Origin: Escherichia phage vB_Eco4M-7
DNA length: 64,000 nucleotides
Direction: 5' to 3' (one strand)
Sequence record: MN176217
Under the pieces are notes generated by a model. That model had not been told where the DNA came from, made no database searches, and saw only the letters and a program-made list of their open reading frames with translations. This document shows positions 5,755-22,587 of this stretch, one piece after another; position 1 is the stretch's first letter, and each line of letters opens with the position of its first letter. The translations under genes were made by a program, and so were the position numbers.

Positions 5755-6180
5755 AGAACATTGATTCGTGTGTTTTGAAGAATGGAATGTGTACAATTGG
5801 TCGCTTTACGCGGCCTTTTTGTCGTTTGGGTCGTGTTTTGTGATAGAATAATTATGACGAGGTGTTTTATTTATTAATTGTGCGGAAATATTTAGAAATA
5901 TATACAAACAGGATTGTTAATATTTTAATAGTGTATGGCTATTGGTCCGTGGTGTTTGTTAGATTCTATCTATGGATTGGATTTTCTTGGGTCGTGGAAC
6001 GTGGTTTTGAACACATTTGATACGCCTAAAATACGGTTAAAAATTAAGCGTATCATGGCTGCAGGCCGCGCCGTTCCTGGATTCCTATTTTCAAAAGTGG
6101 TACACCCTTACGTCATGATACGTCATGGTTTTCTATCCGTAAGAGTGTACAGCCCTTGCCGCGCCTGGCTTGTACATTAA

Positions 6181-6326
6181 TCTTACGGATGATACGGATA
6201 AAACTGAGCATCGTTATATATAGAATTCGAAAAATTAATTAACTCCATTTTAAAAACATTTATATTAATTTTTTTCATATCCTCATACTTATGTTAATTT
6301 ATATATTTAACGTATCATCCGTAAGA
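6181..6326. repeat. inverted-repeat element A: TCTTACGGATGATACG arms flanking ~110 bp AT-rich core
   Basis: 6181-6199 TCTTACGGATGATACGGAT; 6311-6326 is its reverse complement; extra ATACG boxes at 6018, 6112, 6355-6378. Confidence 0.8.
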
Positions 6327-6606
6327 TATAAGTAAAAACAAAGACTTGCGGCAATACGGATGATACGTCATGATACGCTTCAACCAGCCAGCAGCGGCTA
6401 AGTCATTGATTTGCATAACAAGCGGCGAAAGGGATGGATTTCTTTTATACGTATCAAACAGTACACCACGCACCACGGTCCGCAATCCTATTTGCACTAT
6501 GATTTGTGTACGTTTATAGCCATAATGAACATCAATCTGCACTTGAATATAATGTCCATCCATTGTATAATTCACACTATTAATTTGCACTATGGGATTT
6601 TGCACT

Positions 6607-7080
6607 ATGAGTCAAGATTATGTAGCGATGCCTGAAGACTTTGAAGACCCGCGATTCGCAGAGCACAATCAGGCTTTATTCGATGAGTTCATTGACCTTG
6701 TTATTCAGGGCCATGACATGCGCGCAGCTTTTGCACTAGTATTTGGAATGGAAGTTGCAACGGATAACTACACTGGCCAGCGAATCCTTTGCACGCAACG
6801 CAATCCATACTACAAGATGCGCTTCAAAAAGCGTATGGAAGAGATGCCACTCAAGGATTTGTGGAGCGTAAAAGGTGCAATTCACAATTTGGTCAAGCTT
6901 GTGCGTGATCCAGAAGTCGCAGCGTCAGCCAAGCTTAATGCTATTCGTGAACTGAATATCATCTACGACATCACGATGATTGATGAAAACGGCAACAGCA
7001 AGATGGGCCGTTCCATGGACGATTTCTACAAGGATTTTGGAGAGGCGGCCAAAGAAGGCGAGCAATTCTCCCGCCACTAG
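6607..7080 (+). CDS. putative HTH DNA-binding protein, possibly terminase small subunit-like
   Basis: ATG at 6607 overlaps the third TTTGCACTAT motif; N-terminal FDEFIDLVIQGHDMRAAFALVFG resembles small-terminase HTH (recalled pattern, not searched). Confidence 0.35.
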   Translation: MSQDYVAMPEDFEDPRFAEHNQALFDEFIDLVIQGHDMRAAFALVFGMEVATDNYTGQRILCTQRNPYYKMRFKKRMEEMPLKDLWSVKGAIHNLVKLVRDPEVAASAKLNAIRELNIIYDITMIDENGNSKMGRSMDDFYKDFGEAAKEGEQFSRH

Positions 7081-7099
7081 CCAATTTGCACTATAAAAC

Positions 7100-7133
7100 G
7101 GCCCTAGAACACATTGTCTCCAATTCTAGGGCC
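7100..7133. other. 10-bp perfect stem-loop GGCCCTAGAA/TTCTAGGGCC
   Basis: Inverted repeat just after the stop of 6607..7080; no obvious U-tract. Confidence 0.5.
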
Positions 7134-7508
7134 ATCGGTAATACGACGGGGAAGGTTGCAACCGTAAACGCGTTAGAAAGTGTATTATTATAAGTCATCT
7201 TTTAGTCACCTTACGTAACAATTTACGACCTTCAACCGTCCAATCGAACGACTCCACCAGCAGATTCGCACTATAACCTAAGACCACTCGACCCTTCTCG
7301 TTATCGACCCGCCAGCAAGTCTCGAATAGCATTCGATTTGCACTATTAACTATTGCTGCGACTCGCGTAGGATAAGCGCAATTTGCACTATGGTCGTAAA
7401 GGGATAAGGTGCGACCACTTCCGATGGACAACGTAGCGATGAGAATGAGCGTATTCATAAGCCACCAATTTGCACTATGAAAAGCGACCCCGAAGGGCCG
7501 CCATTCGA

Positions 7509-8135
7509 TTAGATAATCTGGAAGGTGTAGGACTTGTTGCCGAACTCGAAGTTCAAGCGTCCAGCTTCTTTAAGCTTCATGCGGAAGCGAATATGCTTGC
7601 TATCCGGCAAGCCCAGCGCGGCGAACGCTACGCGGACCGATTTGAACTCGCCTACACCCTCGACCATAACGCCGTTACGGGTGAGACGCTTTTGCGCCAC
7701 TTCTTTATTATCCCAACTTTTTGCAATACCTTTGCTATTCGAACGGCGATGGGAAGGAATTGCAATTTTATTCGCTCCAACCGGAGCATCATTAAGGCCG
7801 CTTTTAACGAAGGCTTCATATTCTTCGTCGGTCATCGCGTCGAGTTCTTCCTGGGTCGGCTCGGCCTTTTTAACGACCGCGCGCGCCTTATGCGTTTTTA
7901 CATCACTGGACACTTCCTCGCGAGACTTTGCGTCTGGGATGGGCGATTCGTTGGACGGATCATCGAGCGCGTTTAAGGATTCGATTAACGCGATTACGCG
8001 AGTCTCAGCGGTGCGACGGTCCGCGAATTTTTTAATCGGCTTTGAGCCTGAATTTTCGTTATAGAATGCAACGAGGTCGGCGGTCTTGGTTGCGATTACG
8101 TCGCCGCTGGTGGAGAAACGATTCAAACTGGCCAT
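7509..8135 (-). CDS. hypothetical protein
   Basis: ORF track 208 aa; strong RBS AGGAG 8 nt upstream of ATG; protein-like composition unlike the overlapping plus-strand ORF. Confidence 0.6.
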   Translation of the reverse strand: MASLNRFSTSGDVIATKTADLVAFYNENSGSKPIKKFADRRTAETRVIALIESLNALDDPSNESPIPDAKSREEVSSDVKTHKARAVVKKAEPTQEELDAMTDEEYEAFVKSGLNDAPVGANKIAIPSHRRSNSKGIAKSWDNKEVAQKRLTRNGVMVEGVGEFKSVRVAFAALGLPDSKHIRFRMKLKEAGRLNFEFGNKSYTFQII

Positions 8136-8180
8136 AATAAACTCCTAGTTTGGGAGCGGTGTCAACGACCTATTCGTTAA

Positions 8181-8243
8181 CTCATCCGTCCCGATATGAG
8201 TACATTATAATATAGTGTAGAAAAAAAGTAAAGCACTTTTTCG
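8181..8243 (-). promoter_or_regulatory. promoter-like element (minus-strand copy)
   Basis: Reverse complement reads CGAAAAAGTGCTTTAC...TACACT...TATAAT, near-identical to the 8664 element. Confidence 0.5.
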
Positions 8244-8275
8244 ATAAAAATGAGATAAATTATTTTATCTTTTTT

Positions 8276-8318
8276 CTTTACTTCTTCGTACACTCGCGTA
8301 TACTTGTTTATATCGAGA
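8276..8318 (+). promoter_or_regulatory. promoter-like element (copy 2)
   Basis: CTTTACTTCTTCGTACACT (exact 19-mer shared with 8674) + TATACT 8299-8304 + GTTTATATCGAGA. Confidence 0.5.
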
Positions 8319-8360
8319 CGGGCGATGGCCCTTCCTTCTAATAGCATCGGGAGTTTTATT

Positions 8361-8663
8361 ATGACCACTTTAATCTCTTCTATCCTTACTTACGACGAAG
8401 ACCGTTTAACCGTTCGCTCTCTTATCGCCGCCGTTAACGCGGAACTAGAATCCACCATTATTAAGGTCCGCGCGGTCGCTTTCGTCGGCCTTTCCTTCGA
8501 CGATATTAAGTACGCCGAACGTAGCGTCATCCGCTTCGCGAAGACCGATGACGAAGCCGTTACCCTTATCGAGACGGTTACGCCGCGCGGCGAAGCGTTA
8601 ATTATCGTCGAGTATATCGACGTAGAAGGCGATAAGGCTTATAAATATTTTATCGCAAAATAA
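8361..8663 (+). CDS. hypothetical protein
   Basis: ORF track frame 8304..8663, start moved to ATG 8361 after GGGAG; CpG-rich codon choice. Confidence 0.5.
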   Translation: MTTLISSILTYDEDRLTVRSLIAAVNAELESTIIKVRAVAFVGLSFDDIKYAERSVIRFAKTDDEAVTLIETVTPRGEALIIVEYIDVEGDKAYKYFIAK

Positions 8664-8717
8664 CGAAAAAGTGCTTTACTTCTTCGTACACTAAGACTAT
8701 AATGTTTTATATCGAGA
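8664..8717 (+). promoter_or_regulatory. promoter-like element (copy 3)
   Basis: CGAAAAAGTGCTTTACTTCTTCGTACACT, TATAAT 8698-8703, GTTTTATATCGAGA. Confidence 0.5.
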
Positions 8718-8770
8718 GGGGATGAGGTAGCGAATAGGTCGCTACCCTCCCGACTAACTAGGAGAATATT

Positions 8771-9061
8771 ATGATTACTTTAGCCGCTATCCGCGACGCT
8801 CGCGTCGAGACTTCCGAAAATTCCAACGTATTTGGCGAAAAGCTTAAAAACGTCTATCTTTTTAACGTAGACGCAACTATCGAGCCTATTTATGAGCCGA
8901 TCAACTTCCTCGACCTTTACAAGTATCGCGACGAGGACATCGTATCATCCCGCGTAACGATCAACGGCTTCGTCTATACGATTACCGAAATCGGCGGCGA
9001 ATATCTCGCGGTCCCGCAACTCGGCGGCGAAGTAACTTTCTTTAAAATCGTAAGCCTGTAA
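8771..9061 (+). CDS. hypothetical protein
   Basis: ORF track 96 aa; RBS AGGAGAA upstream. Confidence 0.55.
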   Translation: MITLAAIRDARVETSENSNVFGEKLKNVYLFNVDATIEPIYEPINFLDLYKYRDEDIVSSRVTINGFVYTITEIGGEYLAVPQLGGEVTFFKIVSL

Positions 9062-9072
9062 GGAGAAGGAAG

Positions 9073-9282
9073 ATGACTAATATGAATAATTCTCTTAACG
9101 CGCGCGCCCATCGCACCGCCGTAATCGATATGTTCCGCGAGCTTAAGGAATTATGCGATAATATGAACGCGATGTTATCCATCGGCGGCTGGGGATACGA
9201 AGAAGAGGTTAAATACGCGGTTATGCGTCGCCGTCGCGATAACGTCCTTGGACAAATTAAACGCGCCGGATTATTCCTTTAA
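9073..9282 (+). CDS. hypothetical protein
   Basis: ORF track 69 aa; RBS GGAGAAGGAAG upstream. Confidence 0.5.
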   Translation: MTNMNNSLNARAHRTAVIDMFRELKELCDNMNAMLSIGGWGYEEEVKYAVMRRRRDNVLGQIKRAGLFL

Positions 9283-9307
9283 TTATAATTACCCACCGTT
9301 ACTAATA

Positions 9308-9333
9308 GGCCGCGCTTAGTCGCGGCTTTTCTT
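9308..9333 (+). terminator. rho-independent terminator
   Basis: GCCGCG-CTTAGT-CGCGGC hairpin followed by TTTTCTT. Confidence 0.6.
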
Positions 9334-9453
9334 CGTCCCTATCTCGATGCGCTTCTCCGCGAAAACTCCTTTATCCTTCCCTTCGTCGTCGCATAATCTT
9401 CGTCGAGATGCGCCTTAGTTCGCATAACAGGTATTACGTTAAATGGAGAACAT

Positions 9454-9526
9454 CGCGTAAGTCGTTGTTTTATATAGACACATATATCGGACCGTTAGGG
9501 CGGGTCGCGTAAGTCGTTGTTTTATA
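9454..9526 (+). repeat. direct repeat of 21-mer CGCGTAAGTCGTTGTTTTATA (two copies)
   Basis: Copies at 9454-9474 and 9506-9526. Confidence 0.8.
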
Positions 9527-9987
9527 AAGGCGCAAAACTTTCCCTTCGTTCCGAACTAAAACGAGAAATATGCCGACCCTTCGCCCGAAAATAGTACGCA
9601 TGCGAAATTACATGCATCTCGAATAATCCCCACCGATACTATCCTACACGCAATCATTCGCTTTCGAATCATTATGCTTCATATTATCATGCGTCGAATC
9701 ATTCGCTTTCGAATTGTAACGCTGGAAACTGTAACGGCGATTGATTATTGCGTTCGTGTGGTTTTTATGGCATGGGTCTTTTGGTGCGTTTTGCTACTTG
9801 ATGGAATTTGCGGTACACTAATCAAAATACGACACATTTGGTCCACTAACTTTTCAAAGAAAAAGTCCTAGACAGTACCGTACTATTTTGTACCCACAGG
9901 AAATTTGCAGTACACTCCTGCGCAGCAGGCAAAATAAAGGGCCGCACTAAGCGACCCACGATTCACGGTTAAAGCAACATCCACCCA

Positions 9988-10389
9988 CTATTCAATCTTA
10001 TGGGCATCACCAAAACCATCAGCAATCTGGCTGATCAACGACTCAATGGACACAGTTTTACCAATTGATCGAGCGGTAATAGCAAGCATATTATCAATCA
10101 AGCCACGATTGACTTCACATGTTCCAGGCTTTAACTCATCTTCAGAACAACCAAAAAGCTGGTCGCGCAGACTTTCAAGAGAACGCTCAATATTTTCCAA
10201 CTTCTCTTCTAAATCGGATTGGCGACGTAAAACCCATGTCAAGTCACGGTTGCCGACTTCCAATCCATCAGAATAGCAAGGTGGAGCGTCAATTTTGATG
10301 CTGGAACTAAAAGCAGTGCCGCTGCCTTTAGTATAAGTATGGCTCATAGAATCATTTTGGCTCATAGAATCATTTTTATTTGACATATC
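9988..10389 (-). CDS. hypothetical protein with tandem N-terminal SMSQNDSMS repeat
   Basis: ORF track frame 9988..10452, start trimmed to ATG with AAGG RBS; tandem 17-nt repeat at 10340-10380. Confidence 0.5.
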   Translation of the reverse strand, partial: DMSNKNDSMSQNDSMSHTYTKGSGTAFSSSIKIDAPPCYSDGLEVGNRDLTWVLRRQSDLEEKLENIERSLESLRDQLFGCSEDELKPGTCEVNRGLIDNMLAITARSIGKTVSIESLISQIADGFGDAHKIE

Positions 10390-10483
10390 ATTACCTTTAA
10401 TATTTGGGTGATTAACAATAACTATAATAAAGCCGCATAGCGCGCCATTCAAATCGATTTATTAATTGTGACGATTGGATTCA

Positions 10484-10711
10484 TCAATCGATACAAATTG
10501 TGCAGGGTCGCCGGATACAGTTGCGCCGATGATACCCATCTGAGAGAAAAAATTCTGAATAAACTTCCTTCCAGTACTTACGCGCTGCTTTCTGGGCTTG
10601 ACCTTTGCGCTTGAAGCTTTTACCTTGAAATATGAAGCGGTCTTTTGGTGCGTAATACTCCACCACACCTTCCAGCCATTGTAAGAACGCTACTGATTCA
10701 TTTTTATTCAT
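10484..10711 (-). CDS. hypothetical protein; possible +1 frameshift or homopolymer error at T6 run
   Basis: Two overlapping ORFs (10484..10711 and 10462..10668) join at a T6 run near 10545-10552. Confidence 0.35.
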   Translation of the reverse strand: MNKNESVAFLQWLEGVVEYYAPKDRFIFQGKSFKRKGQAQKAARKYWKEVYSEFFLSDGYHRRNCIRRPCTICID

Positions 10712-10718
10712 ATTAACC

Positions 10719-11114
10719 TCAATATTTTAATAAGAAAGCACCCAACCAACTTTCCTCAACCTCACGGCCAGTAGCCACACGGTCGGTCTTGGCTATGGGT
10801 CTGTATTCGCCACAGGGCAATCCGTCTTGTAGTTGTGTACTATTGCCAATTCTCACCAGAACCTTTCCATCAGGGTCGATATAAGCGCGACAACCCATGA
10901 TTTCGAGTCGTTGTAGACACTGGCGAATCGTTTTCAGCTTCTCACCGGACCGGATAGAGCGCGGTCGCGACCGCTGACCGTTTTTATTCACTGTACGCTT
11001 GGCGACCGGAATATCATTGGTGCGTTGCGGCTTGGGTCGGTAATAAGCCTCTTCGCCAGGAGTCGCACCTGGCGTCAGTTCGCGCTTGAGCGCCTTTTCA
11101 ATATCAATGATCAT
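10719..11114 (-). CDS. hypothetical basic protein
   Basis: ORF track 131 aa. Confidence 0.5.
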   Translation of the reverse strand: MIIDIEKALKRELTPGATPGEEAYYRPKPQRTNDIPVAKRTVNKNGQRSRPRSIRSGEKLKTIRQCLQRLEIMGCRAYIDPDGKVLVRIGNSTQLQDGLPCGEYRPIAKTDRVATGREVEESWLGAFLLKY

Positions 11115-11117
11115 GAT

Positions 11118-11216
11118 TTATGCCGCAGCAGCGTGGATGATTGCGTAAACGATTCCAAACAGGGCGACAACACAAACCGTGCCCCAAAATGCAAAGCGTC
11201 GTGCCTCTTTATCCAT
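11118..11216 (-). CDS. small hydrophobic protein (32 aa, single predicted TM helix)
   Basis: Hand-translated MDKEARRFAFWGTVCVVALFGIVYAIIHAAAA; RBS GGAGAAGGG 6 nt upstream; below ORF-track size cutoff. Confidence 0.4.
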   Translation of the reverse strand: MDKEARRFAFWGTVCVVALFGIVYAIIHAAAA

Positions 11217-11496
11217 TAGACCCTTCTCCGCTGTTAATGTTGTCTAGAATCAAGGTTGGAATTTCATCTTGAGTTCTGACTTTGTAATGCGAAGGCATTT
11301 TGCTTTCTAACAATGCCTGTTCGGCTTCTCCCTTTGTCTCAAAGAGCGGGATGCACCAATCAACTGCATCGCCATGTTCATCGCCTGTAACGGCTTTCAA
11401 AAAGACAAGGCGTTTGTCTGCAGGGTCGATTCCGCAAATTAAGTATTTTGGAAGAGCCTTTGCTTTCTGAGCCTTATCAATATCTTCAAATTTCAT
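11209..11496 (-). CDS. hypothetical protein
   Basis: ORF track frame 11209..11508, start at ATG 11496 (MKFEDID) with GAGGTG RBS. Confidence 0.5.
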   Translation of the reverse strand: MKFEDIDKAQKAKALPKYLICGIDPADKRLVFLKAVTGDEHGDAVDWCIPLFETKGEAEQALLESKMPSHYKVRTQDEIPTLILDNINSGEGSNG

Positions 11497-11577
11497 AAAA
11501 CACCTCACTTGTTAACGTATAATGAGTATAACTTAATTGCGCATAAAGTAAAGGCGCTTTTCAGCGCCTTGAGTGAA

Positions 11578-13917
11578 TTATTTTGCTGCTTTCAGCGCGG
11601 CTATCTCTGCCTCGAGAACCTCGATGCGGTCCATCAATGCAAGAATAGCCTCGTGGTGCAGTGCTGCTGCTACGCCTGGTGTGTTGACAGATTTTATGTT
11701 ATCCAACGTCGAACCGTCGCGCAGAGTAACAGGCGATGACTGTGTTTCAGATACTGCTTCAGGAAAGTCTTTCTCTACATCCTGGGCGATGAAGCCAAAA
11801 CCGACGGAGCCATTAGTTTCCAGAGTCCATGCCACGCCTCTAATATTGCGCATCTTGACGAGTGGATCAGTGATCCGCTCAATGTTACTTTTAATACGTT
11901 CATCAGATATACTCCGCCACTCCTGACACCTTGCTATTCCATCGGAGCCAAAAAGATAAGAGGCCGCGCCGCCTGTCCCGCTGTAAACGTTCAATTGAGC
12001 GCGGTCCAGCGCGGTCGTGCTACTCCTTATGCCTCCGAGAATCCAGCTTCCGCTGTACCAGTCACCGCTGATTGAGTTTACAAAATTTCCTTCTGGAACG
12101 TTGGCATAGTTTTGAATCCTTATGGCGTTGTTTTCTGCAGCAGCAACGCCTACTGAATTAACTGGGGATGCAACAAGGTCTTTAGACCGGATATATGCAT
12201 CAACAAATATTGTTCCATCAGGGCGCAGAGTTCCAATCTGGGATGTGGAATTTGGCAACACCAATTTGCCATCTTGGTTAAATGCCCACTCTTGCACCCC
12301 ATTAGATATCACCGCACCTTGTTCAGATGTTAATCCATCAATCTTGCCGTATGCCTGCAAGAATGCTTGATACGCGATGTTCGTGCCAATCTTATATTCA
12401 GATTTTACACTACCGCCTCTGACAAGCGTTCCGGTTGCAGGTTTTACTGCGTCACCATTAATGACGCTCCAAGTCGTATTCGCGGCAACAAATCCACCAG
12501 ATGCACGAATCACCCAAACACCTTCAAAGGCATTAGGTCGAATTTCATTCGCATCATCACGTCCATAAGCGCCATTTGACAGCGATGCATCAAAGTTCAC
12601 GTCTACATAATAACCATCAGAAGTCCCGCGCATACTTCCAGCAGTTTTTACTATTTTTGGCTCAAATGCGCCATATCCTCGCGTCACGCCAGAGGTGCCG
12701 AATGCAGTAAGCATAGACACATTAGGTGAACCAGAAATATTTGGTGCAGCACTCTGCCTGACACGACCGTCGTTTGAAGATACACCTCCATCACCACGCC
12801 CGAATAAACCTGGGATTGAGCCTGCTTGAACGCCGTTGCGGTCTGGAACTCGAAATGTAGTTGTGCCGTTGCCTAATGAATACTTGCCGCGTTTCGCTGG
12901 GTCCGCTAACCAATCTGCATCAGCAATAGGCGAAAGCATTTGCGCATATGCCCAAAGTTCAGGCCAATCTGCACGATTGAGTAATTGGCCGTCAGAAACG
13001 ACTTCGTAAGGCTGGATGTAAGCACGACTGTCTCGCAAGTGGAAGTCGCCGACGCCATAGTTCATAACACCGTTCATGCTTGGGCCAACGGTGCCTGTGT
13101 TCACTAAGTTCTCAACCCAACGCTTGGTTGCAGCATCATAATCGTTTACCGGATCACCAGCAAGCGGAGTCGGCCCTTGTGGACGAATATTCAACCAAGC
13201 TTGAGCATTGTCTGCTGATCCTGTGCCGCCCATTGAAGTTGGAACGATGCTTTGATCAGCGACTTGTCCGAATCCAAAAGCAGACTTCATCCCCTGTATG
13301 GTAGTTTGACCTGTGCCGCCATTTGCGACTGGTATAACGCTTTGCGTGTTATAAACTTGAACCCAATCAGACCAGGATGATATATCGACGCTATACAACC
13401 TTTGGTATACTGTGTTTATCCAGTAAGGCGTGTATCTCTGCACACAGCTGTTCGTTGAAACTCCCGTTTGTAAAACTTCAAGTATTCCAGCTTGTTCTAC
13501 AGGATAGTTGAGTGCTGTTGACGCCCCAGCATTAGTCGGTTGGTAATATTGACCGAACCAGCTTCCGTTCAGCGCGTTAAGGTTTATGCCATTAGGAATT
13601 ACGCCAAAGTTTCGGACAGTACCCGTCAAAGTCGCGGCAGTAGTTCGAATGGAAAGCATATCACCAGCCGCCCAAGCACGCGCTGCAGTACCTTCCTGTG
13701 CACGCTGCACGGTCAGGACGTTTCCAACAACGGCTGTTACTGTGACGATTTCGAATTGGAGGCCTGTTGCGGCGTCAACGATTGTCGCCACTACACGCTC
13801 GTTTGCGCCCAAGGTCGGAAAGCCCGACCCTGAGCGAATTGTGATTGTGGTGTCTGAAGTCGTCGTTGGCTGAGCGAGCGCGACCTCAAAGTTGTTTTTG
13901 AATATTAGCCTTGGCAT
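11578..13917 (-). CDS. tail fibre/spike protein with C-terminal intramolecular chaperone (peptidase S74-like) domain
   Basis: 779 aa; Gly/Thr/Asn-rich fibre-like body; C-terminal SDERIKSNIERI...ALMDRIEVLEAEIAALKAAK resembles the autoproteolytic chaperone domain of phage fibres. Confidence 0.7.
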   Translation of the reverse strand: MPRLIFKNNFEVALAQPTTTSDTTITIRSGSGFPTLGANERVVATIVDAATGLQFEIVTVTAVVGNVLTVQRAQEGTAARAWAAGDMLSIRTTAATLTGTVRNFGVIPNGINLNALNGSWFGQYYQPTNAGASTALNYPVEQAGILEVLQTGVSTNSCVQRYTPYWINTVYQRLYSVDISSWSDWVQVYNTQSVIPVANGGTGQTTIQGMKSAFGFGQVADQSIVPTSMGGTGSADNAQAWLNIRPQGPTPLAGDPVNDYDAATKRWVENLVNTGTVGPSMNGVMNYGVGDFHLRDSRAYIQPYEVVSDGQLLNRADWPELWAYAQMLSPIADADWLADPAKRGKYSLGNGTTTFRVPDRNGVQAGSIPGLFGRGDGGVSSNDGRVRQSAAPNISGSPNVSMLTAFGTSGVTRGYGAFEPKIVKTAGSMRGTSDGYYVDVNFDASLSNGAYGRDDANEIRPNAFEGVWVIRASGGFVAANTTWSVINGDAVKPATGTLVRGGSVKSEYKIGTNIAYQAFLQAYGKIDGLTSEQGAVISNGVQEWAFNQDGKLVLPNSTSQIGTLRPDGTIFVDAYIRSKDLVASPVNSVGVAAAENNAIRIQNYANVPEGNFVNSISGDWYSGSWILGGIRSSTTALDRAQLNVYSGTGGAASYLFGSDGIARCQEWRSISDERIKSNIERITDPLVKMRNIRGVAWTLETNGSVGFGFIAQDVEKDFPEAVSETQSSPVTLRDGSTLDNIKSVNTPGVAAALHHEAILALMDRIEVLEAEIAALKAAK

Positions 13918-13955
13918 TTTACGGTCCTCGTTTTGTCGACAACCGTATTATAACC

Positions 13956-14297
13956 TTAATTTCTTTTGAGAGGAATATGACGGTTGCTGTCATTATTTGG
14001 TTTAATAATGAGCATAAAAACGATTAGAAAGATGATGGCTGATATACTTAATTCAATCAGCGCGGCTTGAGATATGGATTGATCTTCATGATACTGCTTT
14101 TGCATTTCCGCTTTCTTTTGAGCGCAAACTTCAGGTGATATATAATCGCCTTTTGAGTTGCCATAATAAATCTCGCCATTCTCAGAAATAAGCCTGCCGC
14201 AAATATCCGTTTCAGCCTTTGCACTTGACATCATAATAACGGTGCCAATGATAGCAGCGATTGTCCAGATTAGCAGTTGTGATAAAGTGTTGTTCAT
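13956..14297 (-). CDS. membrane protein (N-terminal signal/TM and C-terminal TM)
   Basis: ORF track 113 aa; hydrophobic segments at both ends. Confidence 0.5.
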   Translation of the reverse strand: MNNTLSQLLIWTIAAIIGTVIMMSSAKAETDICGRLISENGEIYYGNSKGDYISPEVCAQKKAEMQKQYHEDQSISQAALIELSISAIIFLIVFMLIIKPNNDSNRHIPLKRN

Positions 14298-14492
14298 GAT
14301 AACCTCTTTAATTCCCTTCCCGATGTGGGAAGGGTGAATATTATTTTACGCGAAAGAATAGGCGCGTGCCACACAGCGAGTCCCAACGGCCCTCACCATC
14401 CCATATCGACCCAACACCAGCAGCGATTGGTCCAGCAGAATTGGCGGCATTGGCCCAGGCGAGTCGTTTAAGCTTCCAACTGCACCAACGAT

Positions 14493-14744
14493 TCACAGTT
14501 CGCCTCCAGACTTCAAAATTAATCCCGCATAGATTATTGCCAGAGCTAAAGGCTCACCGTCGCCAGCCTCTCTATTCTCTTTGATTTGAAGAGTATCCTT
14601 AAGGAATTGCAACTGAACGTTAAATTCATTTTCAATCCCAAGCGTCACAGCCAATTCTTTTACAGAATCTGCATATGCCTTGTCTAGCACTTCTTTTGGT
14701 ACTTTTAAAGTTAATTCACTTGCCATTTTCTTTCCACTCCACAA
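14493..14744 (-). CDS. hypothetical protein
   Basis: ORF track 83 aa; alternative start at 14726. Confidence 0.45.
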   Translation of the reverse strand: MWSGKKMASELTLKVPKEVLDKAYADSVKELAVTLGIENEFNVQLQFLKDTLQIKENREAGDGEPLALAIIYAGLILKSGGEL

Positions 14745-14937
14745 ATGTGCTGCCGCTTGTTTCTCTGTTTAGCAGGTATCTGCCGCGCATCCCATGAAGG
14801 CTGAACTCAACCGTCGATGGATTAGATTTTGAAAGCCATATAGGTTGCCCGTCGAATGGACCGCCTACGCATGTATATTTCGCTTTTGGCTCACTCCTTT
14901 TGGGCCGTTTTGCCCGCTCTTTGATTGATAGTCTCAT
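14716..14937 (-). CDS. hypothetical basic protein
   Basis: ORF track 73 aa. Confidence 0.4.
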   Translation of the reverse strand: MRLSIKERAKRPKRSEPKAKYTCVGGPFDGQPIWLSKSNPSTVEFSLHGMRGRYLLNRETSGSTFVEWKENGK

Positions 14938-15152
14938 CAGTCTTCACCTTGAGATTCCAGACAAGTAAGGACAAGCCACGTCATCGGAAGAATCAAAACC
15001 AGAGAAATGAGGGACCAGATAGACCAGCACAAGATGACAGACTTGAATGTGTGAACGTCGCCAAACACAGCAGTAAAACAGAATCCCATTACAAACGCAA
15101 TAGCTGTGGAATGGTTGTCTATGGCTTTGATGGCACGGTCGATGAGTTTCAT
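14937..15152 (-). CDS. small membrane protein (two hydrophobic helices)
   Basis: ORF track 71 aa; AIAFVMGFCFTAVF and LISLVLILPMTWLVL. Confidence 0.45.
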   Translation of the reverse strand: MKLIDRAIKAIDNHSTAIAFVMGFCFTAVFGDVHTFKSVILCWSIWSLISLVLILPMTWLVLTCLESQGED

Positions 15153-15240
15153 ATTACCTCCGGTTTTGAGTTAATATGATTATAACGCAGACTTTCAGAA
15201 AGGCAAACTTTTTGTGAATTATGCCGTCCATGGCATTGTA

Positions 15241-15471
15241 TCAGTGTGAAGACACAATTAGTGTGCCACTTCCCTTTGCGAAAATTTCAACTCCTGGCGG
15301 GATTTCGATTGTGCCGTTAACAGCAATGCCGATCAGCTTGTCATCGGCCTTTTCCTCAAAACAAATTTCAGCAGCGCCGCCGCGAACTTGAATGAGTGCG
15401 CCGGATACGTTTTCGGCAACGGAAATAACGGAAGTATAAGAGGGAGTGAGTTGAATGTTGACTAGGGCCAT
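15241..15471 (-). CDS. small hypothetical protein, possibly cupin-like beta-barrel
   Basis: ORF track 76 aa; Gly-rich pattern loosely reminiscent of small cupins. Confidence 0.35.
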   Translation of the reverse strand: MALVNIQLTPSYTSVISVAENVSGALIQVRGGAAEICFEEKADDKLIGIAVNGTIEIPPGVEIFAKGSGTLIVSSH

Positions 15472-15485
15472 GGTTTACTCCTGAT

Positions 15486-15512
15486 AAAAAAATGGCCAGA
15501 AAGAATCTGGCC
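15486..15512 (-). terminator. terminator-like hairpin with U-tract on minus strand
   Basis: GGCCAG/CTGGCC stem; A7 run at 15486-15492 on plus strand. Confidence 0.4.
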
Positions 15513-15588
15513 GAAAGATCACCCTTTATCCACTACTAAGCTGGAATCATAATTTTACTTGATATAGCTTGTACAAGCAAACTATAAT

Positions 15589-17049
15589 ATGAATAAAATA
15601 TTAACACATAATTGGAAATTCATGTACCAGTTGAATCCTGCTTTAAAAGAAGTCTGGAAGACAAAAGCGCGATACAAAGTAATATACGGCGGTCGTGCAT
15701 CTTCCAAATCGCACGATGCCGCTGGTTTTGCTATTTATTTGGCGGCAAACTTCAAATTAAAATTCCTTTGCGTTCGACAATTCCAGAACAAGATTTCTGA
15801 ATCTGTATATACTCTATTAAAAGACAAAATAGAGATTTCTGATTTCAAAGATGAGTTCAATTTATTAAAGAACTCTATTGAACATAAAAGAACTAAATCT
15901 GAATTTCTATTTTACGGTATCGCACGTAACGTTGATGAAATTAAATCAACAGAAGGTGTTGACGTCCTTTGGTTGGAAGAAGCGCACGCGCTTACTGAAG
16001 AACAGTGGGACATTATTGAGCCGACAATCCGTAAAGAAGGGTCCGAAATATGGATCATCTTTAACCCTGATGAAGAGGCCGATTTCGTCTACCAAAACTT
16101 TGTTATGCGACCGCCGAAGAATGCCATTGTTAAAAAGATAAACTGGCAAGATAATCCATTCTTGTCGCAAACAATGCTGGACGTTATCGCAGGTATGTAC
16201 GAGCGTGACCCGAAAAAGGCAGAGCACGTTTATGGCGGTGTGCCGAAGACTGGCGGCGACAAATCTGTAATCAACCGCGCATTCGTTAAGGCCGCGCTAA
16301 ATCTCCACAAACACCCTATGCTGGGGTGGAGTTTGTCAGGGTCTAACCGTATAGGCTTTGACGTAGCGGACGATGGCGACGACCTTAACGCCACTGCATT
16401 CGTCACAGGAAACGTATTGCGCGGCATCAAGACGTGGGAAGGTCTGGAAGATGAATTGTTGAAATCGGCAAGCGGAGTTTGGAAAGATGCGCTTACATTT
16501 GGCGCTTCTATAACTTATGACGCCATCGGTGTCGGCGCTTTTGCTGGTTCAAAATTTGATGAACTGAACGAGTATGCAATACATGAAAATCCATCATTTC
16601 CAAGAATCGAATTTAATGCGTTCAATGCGCAAGGGTCTGTTGATGATCCTGATGACGTTTTTCTTGAATTACCACACGTTGAAATACTCAATAAAGACCA
16701 TTTCGCAAACATAAAAGCGCAAAAGTGGACTGAAATTGCAGAGAGATTCAGAAAGACATACGAATATGCAACTGGGCAAGCCGTATATCCGACTGATGAA
16801 TTGATTTCAATCGACACCGATGGTATACCGGAACTTGGGATTCCAGCTTGGACCACTGAAGAGATTGAGACGTTTCTTTTTGAGATGTCAGCGCCGCGCA
16901 AAGATACGTCTGTTCTTGGCAAGTTCAAAGTTGAATCCAAAAAGGATATGGCAAAGCGTGGAGTTAAATCACCTAACAAAGCGGACGCAGCAATCATGGC
17001 ATTGATGAAACCAATCGTTGCAGCATCCGGCTTCTTCTCTAACCTTTAA
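15589..17049 (+). CDS. terL: terminase large subunit
   Basis: 486 aa; Walker A YGGRASSKSH near N-terminus; start may be ATG 15622 because a TATAAT box abuts 15589. Confidence 0.8.
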   Translation: MNKILTHNWKFMYQLNPALKEVWKTKARYKVIYGGRASSKSHDAAGFAIYLAANFKLKFLCVRQFQNKISESVYTLLKDKIEISDFKDEFNLLKNSIEHKRTKSEFLFYGIARNVDEIKSTEGVDVLWLEEAHALTEEQWDIIEPTIRKEGSEIWIIFNPDEEADFVYQNFVMRPPKNAIVKKINWQDNPFLSQTMLDVIAGMYERDPKKAEHVYGGVPKTGGDKSVINRAFVKAALNLHKHPMLGWSLSGSNRIGFDVADDGDDLNATAFVTGNVLRGIKTWEGLEDELLKSASGVWKDALTFGASITYDAIGVGAFAGSKFDELNEYAIHENPSFPRIEFNAFNAQGSVDDPDDVFLELPHVEILNKDHFANIKAQKWTEIAERFRKTYEYATGQAVYPTDELISIDTDGIPELGIPAWTTEEIETFLFEMSAPRKDTSVLGKFKVESKKDMAKRGVKSPNKADAAIMALMKPIVAASGFFSNL

Positions 17050-17052
17050 CAA

Positions 17053-17292
17053 TCAAAGCATTCCGTGCTGAAGGTCGAGTTTTCTTGCAGCAAATGACCT
17101 GGCACGGAATCGCTTACCAGCTCTTACTGCTTGCCGAATCTTCTTTTGCATACACTTACGGTCAAAATCGTTGCGGTCAACGGCTTCGAGTAAATCCCGA
17201 CGCAAAGCACCTAGTGTCGACTTTTCGGATACTTCTATGCCCAGCGCGGCTGCAACATCTTTCAAAACATCGAGTTCGGTTAACGTTCTCAT
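17053..17292 (-). CDS. hypothetical protein
   Basis: ORF track 79 aa; opposite strand between terminase and portal. Confidence 0.45.
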   Translation of the reverse strand: MRTLTELDVLKDVAAALGIEVSEKSTLGALRRDLLEAVDRNDFDRKCMQKKIRQAVRAGKRFRARSFAARKLDLQHGML

Positions 17293-17705
17293 TTGATAAT
17301 CCCCTTGATGTCTGATTCTGCCATAAAGATTGGAGTGCCGCTGCCAGGAACAATAGAGCGCGTTACTTTGTCGAACATATCGTTCTCTTCAACTTGAATA
17401 CGATAAAATTTATTTTTGGATGAAGATGGGCACAATCCAATAAATTTACCAATGCCGCGAACGCATTCATCTTCAAAGTATACTGTTTCACCTTGAATGG
17501 ATTCGATGTTTTCAACCGGATACACCTTGCGACCTAAAAGCCATTCATCCATGGTCGCCTGCAACACGTTTCGCGCATCCAAAATCCAAGGGTCAACTGT
17601 GGCACCTTCATATCGCGCAGCAGTGGCTTTTGCCAGCTCTTCATATTCGCACACATTTACTACTTCGCCTTGATGAAGGACGACAAATACAATTGTTGTG
17701 CTCAT
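17289..17705 (-). CDS. hypothetical protein
   Basis: ORF track 138 aa; 4-nt overlap with downstream gene. Confidence 0.5.
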   Translation of the reverse strand: MSTTIVFVVLHQGEVVNVCEYEELAKATAARYEGATVDPWILDARNVLQATMDEWLLGRKVYPVENIESIQGETVYFEDECVRGIGKFIGLCPSSSKNKFYRIQVEENDMFDKVTRSIVPGSGTPIFMAESDIKGIIK

Positions 17706-17800
17706 TTCAATCTCCTTTCGTTTGGTTAACTAAAATATAACTCAAAATGATACAAAAGCAAAATATTTTATGAACTATTTATGATTACTATACATATCAT

Positions 17801-17829
17801 TTGCTTACAAACACATGAATATTTATAAT
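17801..17829 (+). promoter_or_regulatory. sigma70-like promoter TTGCTT-N17-TATAAT
   Basis: -35 17801-17806, -10 17824-17829, upstream of portal RBS AGGTGG. Confidence 0.5.
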
Positions 17830-17867
17830 ATAGATTGATTCCCTTTCACTGTCAGGTGGCGTTAACA

Positions 17868-20243
17868 ATGAAAATTCTTGGCATAAAACTCTGGGAGAAG
17901 ACGCAACCAGAAGCCGAACCAGCGGAGATGCCGCCAGGCGACCCATTGGCACCGTTTGAACGCCTTGAAAGGCGCGGCAGCGGTCAACGCTGGGAAAAGA
18001 CTGAAAGCAATCGACCGACCTTTAAAACGGTTGATGACTTCCCTTTATATGAGCCTGATATCAACGGGGACGGTGTTGCAATCATCAAAGGTCGCTCAGT
18101 AGATTCAGCAACCGTATCCAAAAAAGTTATGGATAATGCCTTAAAGAACATCAGTTCAGAAGGGCAGGTGAATCCATACACAGTGCCTATTCAGCTGCAA
18201 AACTGGTACTTATCGCAATCATTTATCGGATATCAAGCTTGCGCCATCATCGCGCAGCACTGGCTGGTGAACAAGGCTTGTTCCATGGTAGGTCGCGATG
18301 CGGTCCGTAAAGGCTGGGAAGTAAAATCCAGCTCTGAGTCGGAATTGTCAGTACAGGCCAGCGAACGCCTAAAGCAAATTGATAAAGAATTTAATATCAA
18401 AGAGCACTTAGTTGAAGCCGAACGATTCAAGAATATTTTTGGCATTCGCGTCATCATATTTGACGTGCGCAGCGATGACCCAGAATATTATAGCAAACCT
18501 TTTAACATCGATGGTGTGACAAAAGGGTCTTATAAGGGAATCATTCAGGTTGACCCTTATTGGATGATGCCATTCTTGACGTCTGAAAACACTGCGGACC
18601 CTGCATCACAGCATTTCTATGATCCAGAATATTGGGTGATCAGCGGACAACGTTATCACCGCAGCCACCTCATCATCTTGCGCAACGATGAGCCAGCTGA
18701 TATTCTCAAGCCGACTTATATCTATGGCGGCATTCCTCTGACTCAGCAGATTTATGAACGTATCTATGCCGCTGAACGTACCGCTAACGAAGCGCCATTG
18801 CTGGCGATGTCTAAGCGTACAACCACGCTGCGGACCGACGTTGACAAGGCGATTGCCAATGAGCGGTCGTTTGCCGAACGTTTGATGATGTGGATTAAGT
18901 ACCGCGACAACTATGCGGTAAAAGTGCTTGGTCAGAAAGAAGAGATGGACCAGTTTGACATCAACTTGTCAGACTTCGACAGCATCATCATGAACCAGTA
19001 CCAGCTGGTGGCCGCAATCGCAAAAGTTCCGTCGACAAAACTGTTAGGGACGTCACCTAAAGGCTTTAACGCCACTGGTGAGTTCGAAATGGTCAGCTAT
19101 CACGAAGAATTGGAGACTTGTCAGCAGCACGATTTGACGAAGATTCTTGACCGTCACTATAAAATCCTTTTGAAATCTGAAGGTGTTGAAGTCGACGTTA
19201 AAGTGGCATGGGAGCCAGTTGGTTCACTTACTGCTACTCAGCTTGCAGAGATTAACGACAAACGAGCGAATACTGGTAAGACTCTCATTGATGCTGGCGT
19301 CATCTCCCCTGATGAAGAGCGCGACCGCATCAAGGACGACAAAAACAGCGGCTACAACCGTTTGCCAGAAGATACAGCAGAAGAAACCCCAGGGATGTCT
19401 CCAGAGAATATGGCATTGCTTGGCAAGTCTGCTGGTGAAGTTCTGCAAGGCAAAGCCGATATTGAACAGGCCAAAGCTGATGTCGTCAAGATGAGCGGCC
19501 AGTTCTATAGTAAGACTGGTATCATGCCGGAAGGTGCCGCGCGCGGTGAGTTGGCAGAAAACCCTGACAGGGCACCAGTTGAGATTAACATGGATGATAC
19601 CGATGACGAATCAAGCCATCAGGTTGATGTCCTAACGCAACTGAAAGAAGGTCTGGAGGGTATTGCTGACTATTACCTTAAAGAAGGTCAGGATGTGGAT
19701 TTTGACCCTCAAAAAGACGCAAGGTCTGTGCAGCCGTCTACCCTTCCAAGCGTAAAAGGAAATGTGGTGAATTTACGCCACAACGTAGGGAAGATGGATG
19801 CCGCATCGCTGCCTAAGATGAAGTTGCATGGAATGATTCTTGGAATCGAGAATCCTCGCAACAGCATTCGCAGGGGTAACAGCCTTGATGGTGAATGGGC
19901 AGTTAAGATGCCGCACCATTACGGATTCATCAAAGGAACCAAGGGCGCTGATGGTGATGAAGTCGACTGCTTTGTTGGACCAAATATGAAGTCGCCTAAA
20001 GTATTCATCATTAACCAAAATGATAATTATTCTGGCGAATTTGATGAACACAAGTGTATGCTTGGATTCGATTCAGCAGAAGAAGCGAAAGAAGCATATC
20101 AGGCATCATTTGGTAACGGTTGGAATGGATTCGACTCAATCCACGAATTGGATGTAGACTCATTCAAGGAGTGGTTGAAGGGTGATTGCTCTCAAGCATA
20201 TGGAGCACTCAATAATCCTACTAATTCACCGAAGCAAGGTTGA
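17868..20243 (+). CDS. portal protein with acidic linker and C-terminal inorganic pyrophosphatase-like domain
   Basis: Position after terminase, ~790 aa; C-terminal YGFIKGTKGADGDEVDCFVG ... DSAEEAKEAYQASF parallels family I PPase YGYI..T...DGDPVDVLV ... ENAEAAKAEIVASF. Confidence 0.6.
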   Translation: MKILGIKLWEKTQPEAEPAEMPPGDPLAPFERLERRGSGQRWEKTESNRPTFKTVDDFPLYEPDINGDGVAIIKGRSVDSATVSKKVMDNALKNISSEGQVNPYTVPIQLQNWYLSQSFIGYQACAIIAQHWLVNKACSMVGRDAVRKGWEVKSSSESELSVQASERLKQIDKEFNIKEHLVEAERFKNIFGIRVIIFDVRSDDPEYYSKPFNIDGVTKGSYKGIIQVDPYWMMPFLTSENTADPASQHFYDPEYWVISGQRYHRSHLIILRNDEPADILKPTYIYGGIPLTQQIYERIYAAERTANEAPLLAMSKRTTTLRTDVDKAIANERSFAERLMMWIKYRDNYAVKVLGQKEEMDQFDINLSDFDSIIMNQYQLVAAIAKVPSTKLLGTSPKGFNATGEFEMVSYHEELETCQQHDLTKILDRHYKILLKSEGVEVDVKVAWEPVGSLTATQLAEINDKRANTGKTLIDAGVISPDEERDRIKDDKNSGYNRLPEDTAEETPGMSPENMALLGKSAGEVLQGKADIEQAKADVVKMSGQFYSKTGIMPEGAARGELAENPDRAPVEINMDDTDDESSHQVDVLTQLKEGLEGIADYYLKEGQDVDFDPQKDARSVQPSTLPSVKGNVVNLRHNVGKMDAASLPKMKLHGMILGIENPRNSIRRGNSLDGEWAVKMPHHYGFIKGTKGADGDEVDCFVGPNMKSPKVFIINQNDNYSGEFDEHKCMLGFDSAEEAKEAYQASFGNGWNGFDSIHELDVDSFKEWLKGDCSQAYGALNNPTNSPKQG

Positions 20244-20244
20244 T

Positions 20245-21096
20245 ATGGCTTTTAAAGCTTCGAAAAAACGTGAACGCCGCTCACCCGATAGAATCGGGCG
20301 CGGCAGTCCGATAATCCCATCCAACGCTATTGCGATGGCCTATCGTCGTGAGATGAAAGGTCTTTGCTATACGATGATTGACGACTATCAAGCAGGAATT
20401 GCTGAGTGGCTTGAAAAGAAGCAGGTGAAAAAGTTCTTTGCGCAAGACTCTGCTGATTCAACTTTTCAAACCTTGATGAAGCGACTGCAACTGAAATGGG
20501 CAAAAGCCTTCGCCCGTGTCGGGTCAAAGATTGCCGCAGATTTCATCAAGTCAGTTGAAAAGGGCGCCACTTCTGCTACATTTGCAAGTCTTAAATCTGC
20601 AGGAATAGAAGCGCCAAAAGCCACATATAATAAATTCGTTGAGAACACTCTTAAAACAAGCGAGACGTTCAACACGACTTTAGTGACTAAGGTTGGCGAA
20701 GATATTCACAACAGGGTGTACGAAGCGGTGATGCTTTCGCTGACTTCGCCAGACCCAGCACAACAAGGCACGTCAGGCATTCAGGCGGCATTAAGAAATG
20801 TAAAACACTTCTCTGCAAAACGCGTAGACCTTATCGCTAAAGACCAAACAAGCAAACTTTATTGCGTATTAAGTGATGAAAGGATGCGACAGAATGGCGT
20901 TGAGGAATTTGAGTGGGCGCATTCAGGAGCAGGCAAAGAGCCGCGAATATCACATGAGCACGTCGACGGCATGAGATTCAAGCTTGATGACAAACGCTTA
21001 TGGGAAGTAGGTGGAGAACTTAAGTTCAAAAAGGGTGACATCGGTCCTCCTGGATGGGCGATACACTGCAAGTGCAGAAAAATACCAATTATCTGA
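20245..21096 (+). CDS. head morphogenesis protein (Mu F / SPP1 gp7-like)
   Basis: Position after portal; C-terminal HVDGMRF...HCKCRK motif typical of the family. Confidence 0.6.
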   Translation: MAFKASKKRERRSPDRIGRGSPIIPSNAIAMAYRREMKGLCYTMIDDYQAGIAEWLEKKQVKKFFAQDSADSTFQTLMKRLQLKWAKAFARVGSKIAADFIKSVEKGATSATFASLKSAGIEAPKATYNKFVENTLKTSETFNTTLVTKVGEDIHNRVYEAVMLSLTSPDPAQQGTSGIQAALRNVKHFSAKRVDLIAKDQTSKLYCVLSDERMRQNGVEEFEWAHSGAGKEPRISHEHVDGMRFKLDDKRLWEVGGELKFKKGDIGPPGWAIHCKCRKIPII

Positions 21097-21103
21097 GGTC
21101 ATT

Positions 21104-22024
21104 ATGACGATACCAATCAACACATTCCCTCTATCTGGACAAACTCCAGTCTTGCCTGCGGTGTATGCTAATGGCTTGGCGATTGTCTCAGAATTCACAT
21201 CAGATAAAAACCTGATTGTTCCATTGAGTCCGCCGCTTGCATCAGGGTATAACTCAGTAGGTCAATTCTTTATGATTGGCAATGATGGCGATTCGACCAG
21301 TAAGCCTAATCTGACATTGTCTGTACCTAAGATGGACATCACAGACGTTCAAACTGGCTTGACTGCATCAACAATCACCATTGCTTTTGGAGAAGCGGTG
21401 ATTATAGGAATGGAGTCTGGAGGGTCCAAGAATGCTGTCGCCGTTAAGGTAGTCAAATCCAGCGACAACCAATACACGTTACCAGCTGCGACGGATTCCG
21501 TTCTCGGCGGCGTCAAAATAGGAAGCGGAATAAGCGTCGCAGGTGATGGTACAATTAGCGTCACTCAATACTCATTGCCGATTGCGTCAGCATCTACTTT
21601 AGGCGGCGTAAAGGTCGGTACAACTCTATCAATTGATGGTTCCGGTGTGCTTAACGCAGCGGAAAGCACCGTCCAGAATGCCACGAACAGTGTTAGCAAT
21701 CCTCCAACCACTTTGGTTAATCTGGCAACCTTAAACCTTCCTGCAGGAAAGTGGCTTGTGACGGCAAGTCAGTTGACTGTCGCGACAGCAGGAATTCAAG
21801 CGAACACCGGAATTACAGCCAAATTGTCAACAAGCGATTCAGATATTACGGATGATGCATTTACGATGTCAGCGGGCATTCGGGCTGCAGGTCGTTTTGG
21901 CGGCAACATCCCGACAAAAATAATCACTCTTGCCGCGCCTGGTGATGTATATCTAAACTATCAGTGCACCGATGCATTGACATCTACCGTTCACGGACAG
22001 ATCACCGCAATTAAGCTGAACTAA
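21104..22024 (+). CDS. virion fibre-like protein with repeated ...LGGVK(I/V)G...S(I/V).G(D/S)G... motifs
   Basis: ORF track frame 21011..22024 trimmed to ATG after GAGGT; tandem fibre-repeat-like motifs. Confidence 0.45.
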   Translation: MTIPINTFPLSGQTPVLPAVYANGLAIVSEFTSDKNLIVPLSPPLASGYNSVGQFFMIGNDGDSTSKPNLTLSVPKMDITDVQTGLTASTITIAFGEAVIIGMESGGSKNAVAVKVVKSSDNQYTLPAATDSVLGGVKIGSGISVAGDGTISVTQYSLPIASASTLGGVKVGTTLSIDGSGVLNAAESTVQNATNSVSNPPTTLVNLATLNLPAGKWLVTASQLTVATAGIQANTGITAKLSTSDSDITDDAFTMSAGIRAAGRFGGNIPTKIITLAAPGDVYLNYQCTDALTSTVHGQITAIKLN

Positions 22025-22564: not shown

Positions 22565-22587
22565 ACACAATACTTATTTGAGGGTGG

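Follow-up and report, generated by a model that had tools for sequence, protein, structure and literature searches.

Why does a cassette of four small genes, at positions 7,509–9,333 of a 64,000-nt stretch of the genome of Escherichia phage vB_Eco4M-7 (record MN176217; the whole stretch is referred to here as the window), differ so sharply in composition from the DNA around it, and what may its products do for the phage? An inspection of the letters alone (the sequence-only reading) had taken the locus for an autonomous early module of the kind that often carries host-takeover or anti-defence functions, but had missed both its location in a direct terminal repeat and its avoidance of the dinucleotides CA and TG. 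With these two features taken into account, the cassette is probably a pre-early (immediate-early) module for host takeover or anti-defence. The source phage is a member of Wifcevirus, a genus among the fastest-growing coliphages known: segment 7400–9400 of the window is 100% identical to Escherichia phage vB_Eco4M-7n and 91–95% identical to 27 further Wifcevirus records, and the virion is of the myovirus kind, related to the PB1 group. The four genes proposed before, encoding proteins of 208, 100, 96 and 69 aa (p208, p100, p96 and p69), are present as open reading frames (ORFs).

CA/TG depletion in and around the cassette

A dinucleotide scan delimits an island at 7500–9650 that is depleted in CA/TG and enriched in CG and TA, with its core at 8140–9600 and a gradient over p208 and the neighbouring gene p87. 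In 7509–9333 the observed/expected ratio of CA/TG is 0.46, against 1.18 ± 0.06 in windows of the same size (z = −12.3), and within 8200–9000 it falls to 0.19–0.35; the ratio for CpG is 1.98, against 1.09 ± 0.09, which is the maximum of the 64-kb window, and that for TA rises in the island from 0.66 to 1.14. No further 1-kb outlier window for CA, CG or TA was found in the 64 kb besides the island, so that the locus, which the sequence-only reading would have given up had its composition resembled that of the remaining genome, is a clear outlier. The same reading had described the codon choice as CpG-rich; the enrichment is there, although what underlies it is avoidance of CA/TG on both strands, and the CpG excess, which sits mostly at codon junctions (NNC|GNN 0.229 versus 0.094 per codon), is the counterpart of this stronger loss.

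The depletion lies chiefly at synonymous sites and codon junctions, and on the sense strand CA and TG are about equally depleted in each core gene, whatever its orientation. When the CA+TG count expected of each gene was derived from synonymous recodings, given the protein sequence and the codon usage of the genome, p100 showed 7 in 300 nt where 35.7 ± 4.3 were expected, p96 showed 12 (expected 32.5 ± 3.9), p69 showed 13, ten of them forced by the protein (expected 30.1 ± 3.2), and p208 showed 54 (expected 75.6 ± 5.7). The proteins themselves are affected: the five residues encoded with CA or TG (Met, Trp, Cys, His and Gln) together reach half their frequency in the remaining proteome; the drop is confined to Trp, Cys, His and Gln, with Met unchanged. 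The rarest trinucleotide is CAG/CTG, at 0.02–0.06 of its genomic frequency, and CA/TG are still depleted in the 300 bp past the terminator that closes the cassette at 9307–9333. A k-mer search of the island against a first-order Markov model for a recurring binding motif gave nothing convincing beyond parts of the promoters, and no publication describing a loss of CA/TG from the early regions of phages came up in literature searches. The CA/TG anomaly is thus real, very strong, conserved in three phage genera (see below) and, as far as these searches show, undescribed.

Several simple causes can be set aside on these data. Codon optimisation for the host is ruled out, as CTG drops to 0.06 of the Leu codons in the cassette while CTT and TTA rise, the reverse of the preference that is optimal in Escherichia coli. 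Avoidance of internal start codons is ruled out because the most depleted trinucleotide is CTG/CAG and CTG is not a normal start codon, and general avoidance of restriction palindromes because CGCG and TCGA, palindromes free of CA and TG, are enriched 2- to 3.5-fold in the island.

Location in the direct terminal repeat

In phage Mansfield the cassette homologues fall within a direct terminal repeat that PhageTerm predicts at 3673 bp, and the WFC record holds both copies of its terminal repeat, 3784 bp each, with zero mismatches between them. Exact 25-mers from the two ends of the WFC repeat match the window at 6247 and 9838–9862, and therefore the repeat would here occupy 6247–9862, that is, 3.6 kb, with the cassette fully inside. 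Its contents are, in order, the gene at 6592–7080, named terminase small subunit (terS) by the Mansfield annotators, p87, the four-gene cassette and a non-coding tail rich in repeats. The island and the cassette end about 210 bp short of the right boundary, a position from which the module may be expected to enter the cytoplasm with the earliest DNA. Location within a direct terminal repeat, a feature of the pre-early region of T5, is shared by this locus, as judged from the mapped repeat ends and from the PhageTerm annotations of Mansfield and of phage MyoSmar.

The depletion is not a property of the entire terminal repeat, which is ruled out by normal or high CA/TG on its terS side here and in the inner 1.8 kb of the MyoSmar repeat. 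This partial extent also bears on a replication-linked explanation, in which sites of the E. coli primase DnaG (CTG) would be avoided on both strands so that the repeat, once replicated, stays single-stranded and favours the formation of concatemers. Such a cause would agree with the E. coli phages, where no trinucleotide is depleted more than CAG/CTG, and strand symmetry would follow from each strand serving, at one of the ends, as template for the lagging strand. Nevertheless, every trinucleotide containing CA or TG is depleted and not CTG alone, CTG is not the most depleted one in Serratia phage SMP, and the depletion stops short of the whole repeat and, in its left copy, does not reach the terminus, which makes this explanation highly improbable.

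Fit to restriction phenotypes

The Wifcevirus isolates of the BASEL collection resist EcoKI, EcoCFT_I, EcoRI, EcoRV and EcoCFT_II without known protection of the genome, and are highly sensitive to EcoP1_I; the failure of EcoCFT_II, despite a number of sites similar to that of EcoP1_I, was left unexplained by the BASEL authors. In T5-like phages, restriction is effective only if active sites fall in the first-step-transfer repeat (PMC10644984). The repeat of the BASEL isolate Bas98 contains no EcoRI, EcoRV, EcoKI or EcoAI-type site, a single CACAG, and five AGACC on both strands in head-to-head arrangement. CACAG is considered here because the EcoCFT_II motif was inferred from the site counts in the literature: T7 contains six 5-mers with 81 occurrences each, two of them exceed the published Bas98 total of 93, and CACAG is the only one of the six that scales to that total, with 77 occurrences in 84% of the Bas98 genome, from which it is deduced as the probable motif. 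In the repeat of the present window there are no CACAG and one CAGAG, where 5.6 of each would be expected from the remaining genome, two CAGCAG, both on the same strand (expected 4.3), and six AGACC (expected 4.8).

The site counts of Bas98 and the published phenotypes agree with the T5-type rule that active sites inside the region decide restriction, and the pattern of sensitivity fits what would be expected if the repeat, or its island side, were exposed before protection is established. A testable rule follows, namely that restriction systems with active sites inside the repeat would stop Wifcevirus phages, and the locus is the obvious place to seek the genes behind their resistance to restriction.

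Promoters, 5′UTR hairpins and terminators

By its sequence, the cassette comprises three transcription units, P3–p208 to the left and P2–p100 and P1–p96–p69 to the right. The three promoter-like copies of the sequence-only reading were all recovered by scan at the places it had given them: P1 (8675–8703, plus strand; TTTACT-17-TATAAT; also by repeat match), predicted to drive p96 and p69; P2 (8277–8304, plus strand; TTTACT-16-TATACT), predicted to drive p100; and P3 (8232–8204, minus strand; TTTACT-17-TATAAT; also by inverted repeats), predicted to drive p208. They match the sigma-70 consensus at 10 or 9 of 12 positions, with spacers of 16–17 nt, and all have a −35 hexamer of the form TTTAC(T) instead of TTGACA. 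The 19-mer CTTTACTTCTTCGTACACT occurs exactly twice, against 0.01 expected, and P1 and P3 are the only matches in the 64 kb to the gapped pattern CTTTAC-N17-19-TAYAMTNT (0.00 expected); the promoter type is therefore private to the cassette.

The homology between P1 and P3 is real and longer than had been seen, since, beyond the promoter, it takes in a hairpin in the 5′ untranslated region (5′UTR) as well as the ribosome-binding site and extends as far as the ATG (inverted repeats I6 and I11). The p208 mRNA would carry the stem-loop GTTAACGA-AUAGG-UCGUUGAC (8162..8182, minus strand; inverted repeats and folding) and the p96 mRNA GGUAGCGA-AUAGG-UCGCUACC (8726..8746, plus strand; folding and comparison across isolates), each with an 8-bp stem and an AUAGG loop (z = −2.7 and −2.1, respectively, against shuffles). 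Among isolates and genera the stem shows compensatory changes (GGUAGCGA/UCGCUACC, GUUAACGA/UCGUUAAC, GGGCGA/UCGCCC), with G·U intermediates present, around an invariant centre, CGA-AUAGG-UCG. Rfam covariance models of curated RNA families gave zero matches in 6000–10500 up to E = 1. The combination of promoter, hairpin and ribosome-binding site would be a compact and strong expression element for practical use.

The rightward units are closed by an intrinsic terminator, which the terminator scan places at 9307..9333 (plus strand), in line with the clean terminator proposed before. Another intrinsic terminator hairpin, GCGGCCC-TTCG-GGGTCGC followed by TTTT, was read from the sequence 3′ of p208 (7480..7501, minus strand), and its equivalent is annotated in WFC. 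The upstream part of P1 also creates, in this O157 phage, one EcoKI site (AACGAAAAAGTGC, 8662–8674), which is missing from the repeats of Bas98, WFC and Mansfield.

Predicted proteins

The sequence-only reading found no recognisable motifs in the four proteins; a Pfam search likewise gave nothing significant, and hence no match to A1, A2, dmp or Ocr, although two of the proteins do fall into phage protein families, p208 (7509..8135, minus strand; basic, pI 9.3) into phrog_4730 and p69 (9073..9282, plus strand) into phrog_10377. In its predicted model p208 has a Rho-N/SAP-like N-terminal domain, a disordered linker and a confidently modelled winged-helix-like C-terminal domain, whose best matches, weak ones, are ArsR/SmtB winged helices; these two folds resembling nucleic-acid-binding domains, weak as the matches are, suggest that p208 is probably a DNA-binding protein. 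A search of PDB sequences with the p208 family profile returned coiled-coil noise only. In Pbunavirus, Myosmarvirus and Luteibacter phage Pluto the p208 family heads an early-looking gene cluster that adjoins the gene for the large terminase. Homologues of p69 occur in Klebsiella phages of the genus Webervirus; the name transcriptional regulator, given to the family in PHROGs and in some records, is an annotation label only, for which supporting evidence was searched and none found.

Small size and strong acidity, the features of DNA-mimic anti-restriction proteins such as Ocr and ArdA, are found in p100 (8361..8663, plus strand; pI 4.7) and p96 (8771..9061, plus strand; pI 4.45). More precisely, their pI values are 4.45–4.67, those of their relatives in other isolates 4.05–4.36, and taken with their counterparts in other isolates they measure 88–114 aa with pI 4.0–4.7. 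Loose kinships connect some of these small acidic proteins, p96 weakly with Mansfield_005, and WFC_005 with Kyle-94 and the latter with MyoSmar_003. The homologue search for p96 returned Wifcevirus proteins only, and its structure model (pLDDT 60.5) was too low in confidence for a fold search. For the orphan p100, an exhaustive search of 1.8 billion representatives gave two clusters and a single real relative, P0163, 42% identical; two other matches, of 335 and 984 aa with repeats taken as MucBP-like, were judged spurious.

The island in related phages

The promoter and the architecture of the locus are conserved in three phage genera, while the small acidic genes come and go. In Serratia phage SMP (Myosmarvirus) the island measures 1.5 kb, shows CA/TG at 0.10–0.36 and CG up to 2.66, and has the hairpin loop seen here, a promoter resembling those of the cassette, three genes and one terminator; the MyoSmar island begins about 240 bp into the genome from its left end, within a repeat of 3559 bp, and that of Pantoea phage Kyle lies 200–340 bp from the right end. 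Of four promoter-like copies in Kyle, which shares the 5′UTR hairpin too, three fit the strict pattern GCTTTACT-N15-17-TATAATGT, which is present in all the Wifcevirus loci. The terminal ~200 bp that precede the island in SMP (L007, 11822–12000, corresponding to the MyoSmar left end) are strongly C/A-rich and G-poor on one strand (CCACCACAATCCACCTCCAACACC...), a composition opposite to that of the island after them.

Three comparisons indicate that the CA/TG constraint is positional, since a gene shows the depletion only if it is located in the island: of the two p208 paralogues in SMP the island copy alone is depleted, the p69 homologue of Klebsiella Webervirus phage Sushi has 30 CA+TG versus 13 in p69, and the accessory genes with which other isolates supplement or substitute those of the cassette (Mansfield_005, F13_0024-26) are as depleted as the genes found here. 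These comparisons bear directly on the idea that the module keeps the signature of a donor with genome-wide CA/TG poverty, from which it was horizontally transferred. The orphan status of p100 and p96 and the sharp compositional borders of the module would suit such an origin; but three unrelated gene families are depleted only inside the island, passive inheritance should have decayed in three genera whose p208-family proteins are ~40–50% identical, and no 600-bp window with CA/TG below 0.5 exists in Pbunavirus 14-1, T7, the first 30 kb of T5 or ~75 other loci carrying p208 relatives, so that a transfer legacy is very unlikely. Nor is the depletion a trait of early regions or repeats in general, which is ruled out by T7 and 14-1, where nothing of the kind is seen, and by T5, which has another signature. 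In 14-1 a mild CA/TG depletion (0.66–0.75) was noticed in gp76 (L014, 43598–44327), the adjacent gene that converges on the p208 homologue gp77, up to a bidirectional terminator; this may be a weak equivalent of the island in a phage that lacks its marked signature.

A local mutational bias, by which repair or replication at the genome end would turn CA/TG into CG or TA with no selection involved, is suggested by the fact that CG and TA are the exact transition neighbours of CA/TG. Among eight Wifcevirus sequences, however, changes that create CA/TG exceed those that destroy them by 55 to 19, opposite to what a removal bias predicts; moreover, the depleted tract is part of the repeat only and tracks the transcription units, and amino-acid usage is shifted too, which leaves this explanation with very little probability.

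The limits of the tract give more weight to a constraint at the level of RNA, in which pre-early mRNAs would avoid UG and CA because of an agent acting on transcripts; a host or phage endoribonuclease, an RNA sensor, or the removal of internal start codons and structures would be candidates. In SMP and Kyle the depletion begins at about the promoter and ends within tens of bases past the terminator, and the 5′UTR hairpins indicate selection on RNA. A eukaryotic analogue is the immediate-early 1 gene of human cytomegalovirus, which is reportedly CpG-suppressed and thereby evades ZAP; there, and by the present proposal in the cassette, one dinucleotide is lost specifically from those genes of a DNA virus that are expressed first, although that system is eukaryotic with a known sensor acting on RNA, whereas here the loss concerns CA/TG on both strands. 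On the other side, sense-strand CA and UG are equally depleted in both gene orientations, so that an RNA-level cause would need two specificities; the form of the −35 hexamers means that TG and CA are avoided in untranscribed DNA as well; CTG/CAG is the most depleted trinucleotide though no start codon; and here the depletion continues for 300 bp past the terminator. A purely RNA-level constraint is therefore rather unlikely.

A proposed pre-early module for takeover or anti-defence

The pre-early module favoured here is, as a predicted early one, well supported by its context, namely its own promoters, 5′UTRs, ribosome-binding sites and terminators, its location in the repeat next to a genome end, an architecture kept in three genera and the fit to restriction phenotypes. 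In the proposed mechanism, unmodified host sigma-70 RNA polymerase would read the three short units from the near-consensus promoter copies, each mRNA would offer a strong ribosome-binding site, and the hairpin at the mRNA start would probably be stabilising. The products, the basic and probably DNA-binding p208, the variable small acidic proteins (p100, p96 and relatives) and p69, would then take over the host or neutralise restriction or other defences before the remaining genome is exposed, as in T5 first-step transfer. The loss of CA/TG would most likely reflect selection, on the first-entering DNA, its transcripts or both, that removes a short feature needed by a nuclease or sensor active at that time, the agent being possibly host restriction, another defence, or a host-shutoff enzyme of the phage itself that must spare this DNA. 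Many known motifs of host restriction and related defences contain CA or TG.

Some observations weigh against this interpretation. Pfam, PHROG, profile and homology searches matched none of the island proteins to a known family of takeover proteins, nucleases or anti-restriction factors. The analysis establishes the anatomy of the locus, its place in the repeat, its conservation across genera, the positional character of the depletion and the restriction fit; early timing, order of entry, protein functions and the agent behind the CA/TG avoidance are inferred. The island is smaller than the repeat, given the CA/TG content of its terS side and of the inner MyoSmar repeat, and the exposed DNA would have to be just part of it. 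The enrichment of CGCG and TCGA implies that general restriction-site avoidance cannot be the whole cause, and the first-step-transfer region of T5 obeys the restriction rule yet has normal CA/TG. Finally, the 55 CA/TG-creating variants among the eight Wifcevirus sequences compare with 71 expected, a deficit of only ~22%, so that present-day per-site selection is weak; this modest deficit suggests many weakly selected sites and lends selection slight support, short of proof.

A more specific version holds that an enterobacterial nuclease or sensor of very low specificity, or one of the phage's own host shutoff, reads the CA/TG step itself and that the genes entering and expressed first were recoded, even in their choice of amino acids, to escape it. 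This is a tentative possibility, more doubtful than the module itself; if true, it would be a bacterial counterpart of the dinucleotide-based sensing of viruses in animals and could account for the survival of pre-early DNA during the attack on host DNA. Whatever the agent, a CA/TG-poor recoding over ~2 kb, with sharp borders and in three genera, is a clean natural experiment that points to an undescribed sequence-reading process at the very start of infection.

Comparison with known early modules

The cassette is a variant of the terminal-repeat early modules of the T5 and SPO1 kind, distinguished by its CA/TG loss. With the first-step-transfer region of T5 and BF23 it shares placement in a direct terminal repeat, divergent units, promoters of the host type, numerous small genes of little-known function, a repeat-rich non-coding tract at the border of the repeat and a dinucleotide signature unlike that of the remaining genome, and the Wifcevirus phenotypes fit the T5 restriction rule. 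The differences are that the repeat measures 10 kb in T5 and 3.6 kb here, that no homologues of A1, A2 or dmp were found here (Pfam, PHROG), that two-step DNA transfer belongs to T5, to which Wifcevirus is likened from sequence and phenotypes, and that CA/TG are reduced 3- to 10-fold here but normal in T5, where AG/GA are low instead. In the T5 repeat (L011, 1–9200), compared with 10300–30000, the ratios are 1.35/0.79 for CG, 1.56/1.06 for GC, 0.79/1.10 for AG and 0.77/1.00 for GA, with CA/TG normal, a signature of which we know of no earlier description. An odd pre-early composition may therefore be general, whereas the loss of CA/TG in particular is not, and sliding-window dinucleotide scans could serve to locate pre-early regions in uncharacterised phages.

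The SPO1 host-takeover module reportedly consists of small early genes clustered in the terminal redundancy, with their own strong host-type promoters and ribosome-binding sites; it differs in its Gram-positive host, its ~24 genes in 13 kb and the absence of any sequence relation, and we know of no report of dinucleotide depletion in it. The class I early region of T7, with promoters A1–A3 and Ocr, differs in having no compositional island and unidirectional promoters, and no Ocr homologue was found in the cassette (Pfam). How T5 avoids degrading its own DNA is described as "not clear" (PMC10644984), and the recoding reported here may bear on this question of how pre-early DNA escapes degradation.

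Other features of the repeat and the window

The non-coding tail of the repeat, similar to the repeat-rich border of the T5 terminal repeat, contains at 9453–9534 and 9652–9714 a 30-nt direct repeat in two copies and a 15-nt tandem array of four AATCATTCGCTTCG; AATCATTCG is found again close to the genome end of phage Kyle (L021:60-160). On the opposite side, ATTTGCACTAT occurs in eight copies at 6490–7478, all of them on the plus strand, and is absent from the remainder of the 64 kb (1.9 expected); the copies form an array that extends over the terS gene and p87, and about seven copies of TAGTGCAA, which is the same motif, stand beside terS in Kyle (L021:2120-2530). The array may serve in recognition by the terminase or as an injection-stop signal, or may be a set of origin iterons. 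The 64-kb window contains no tRNA genes. At 59–60.5 kb, AG, GC and AT are dinucleotide outliers and the AT skew is strong because of a 281-aa protein (59242–60087, minus strand) that consists mostly of Lys/Ala/Glu repeats and has a small structured part at its C terminus.

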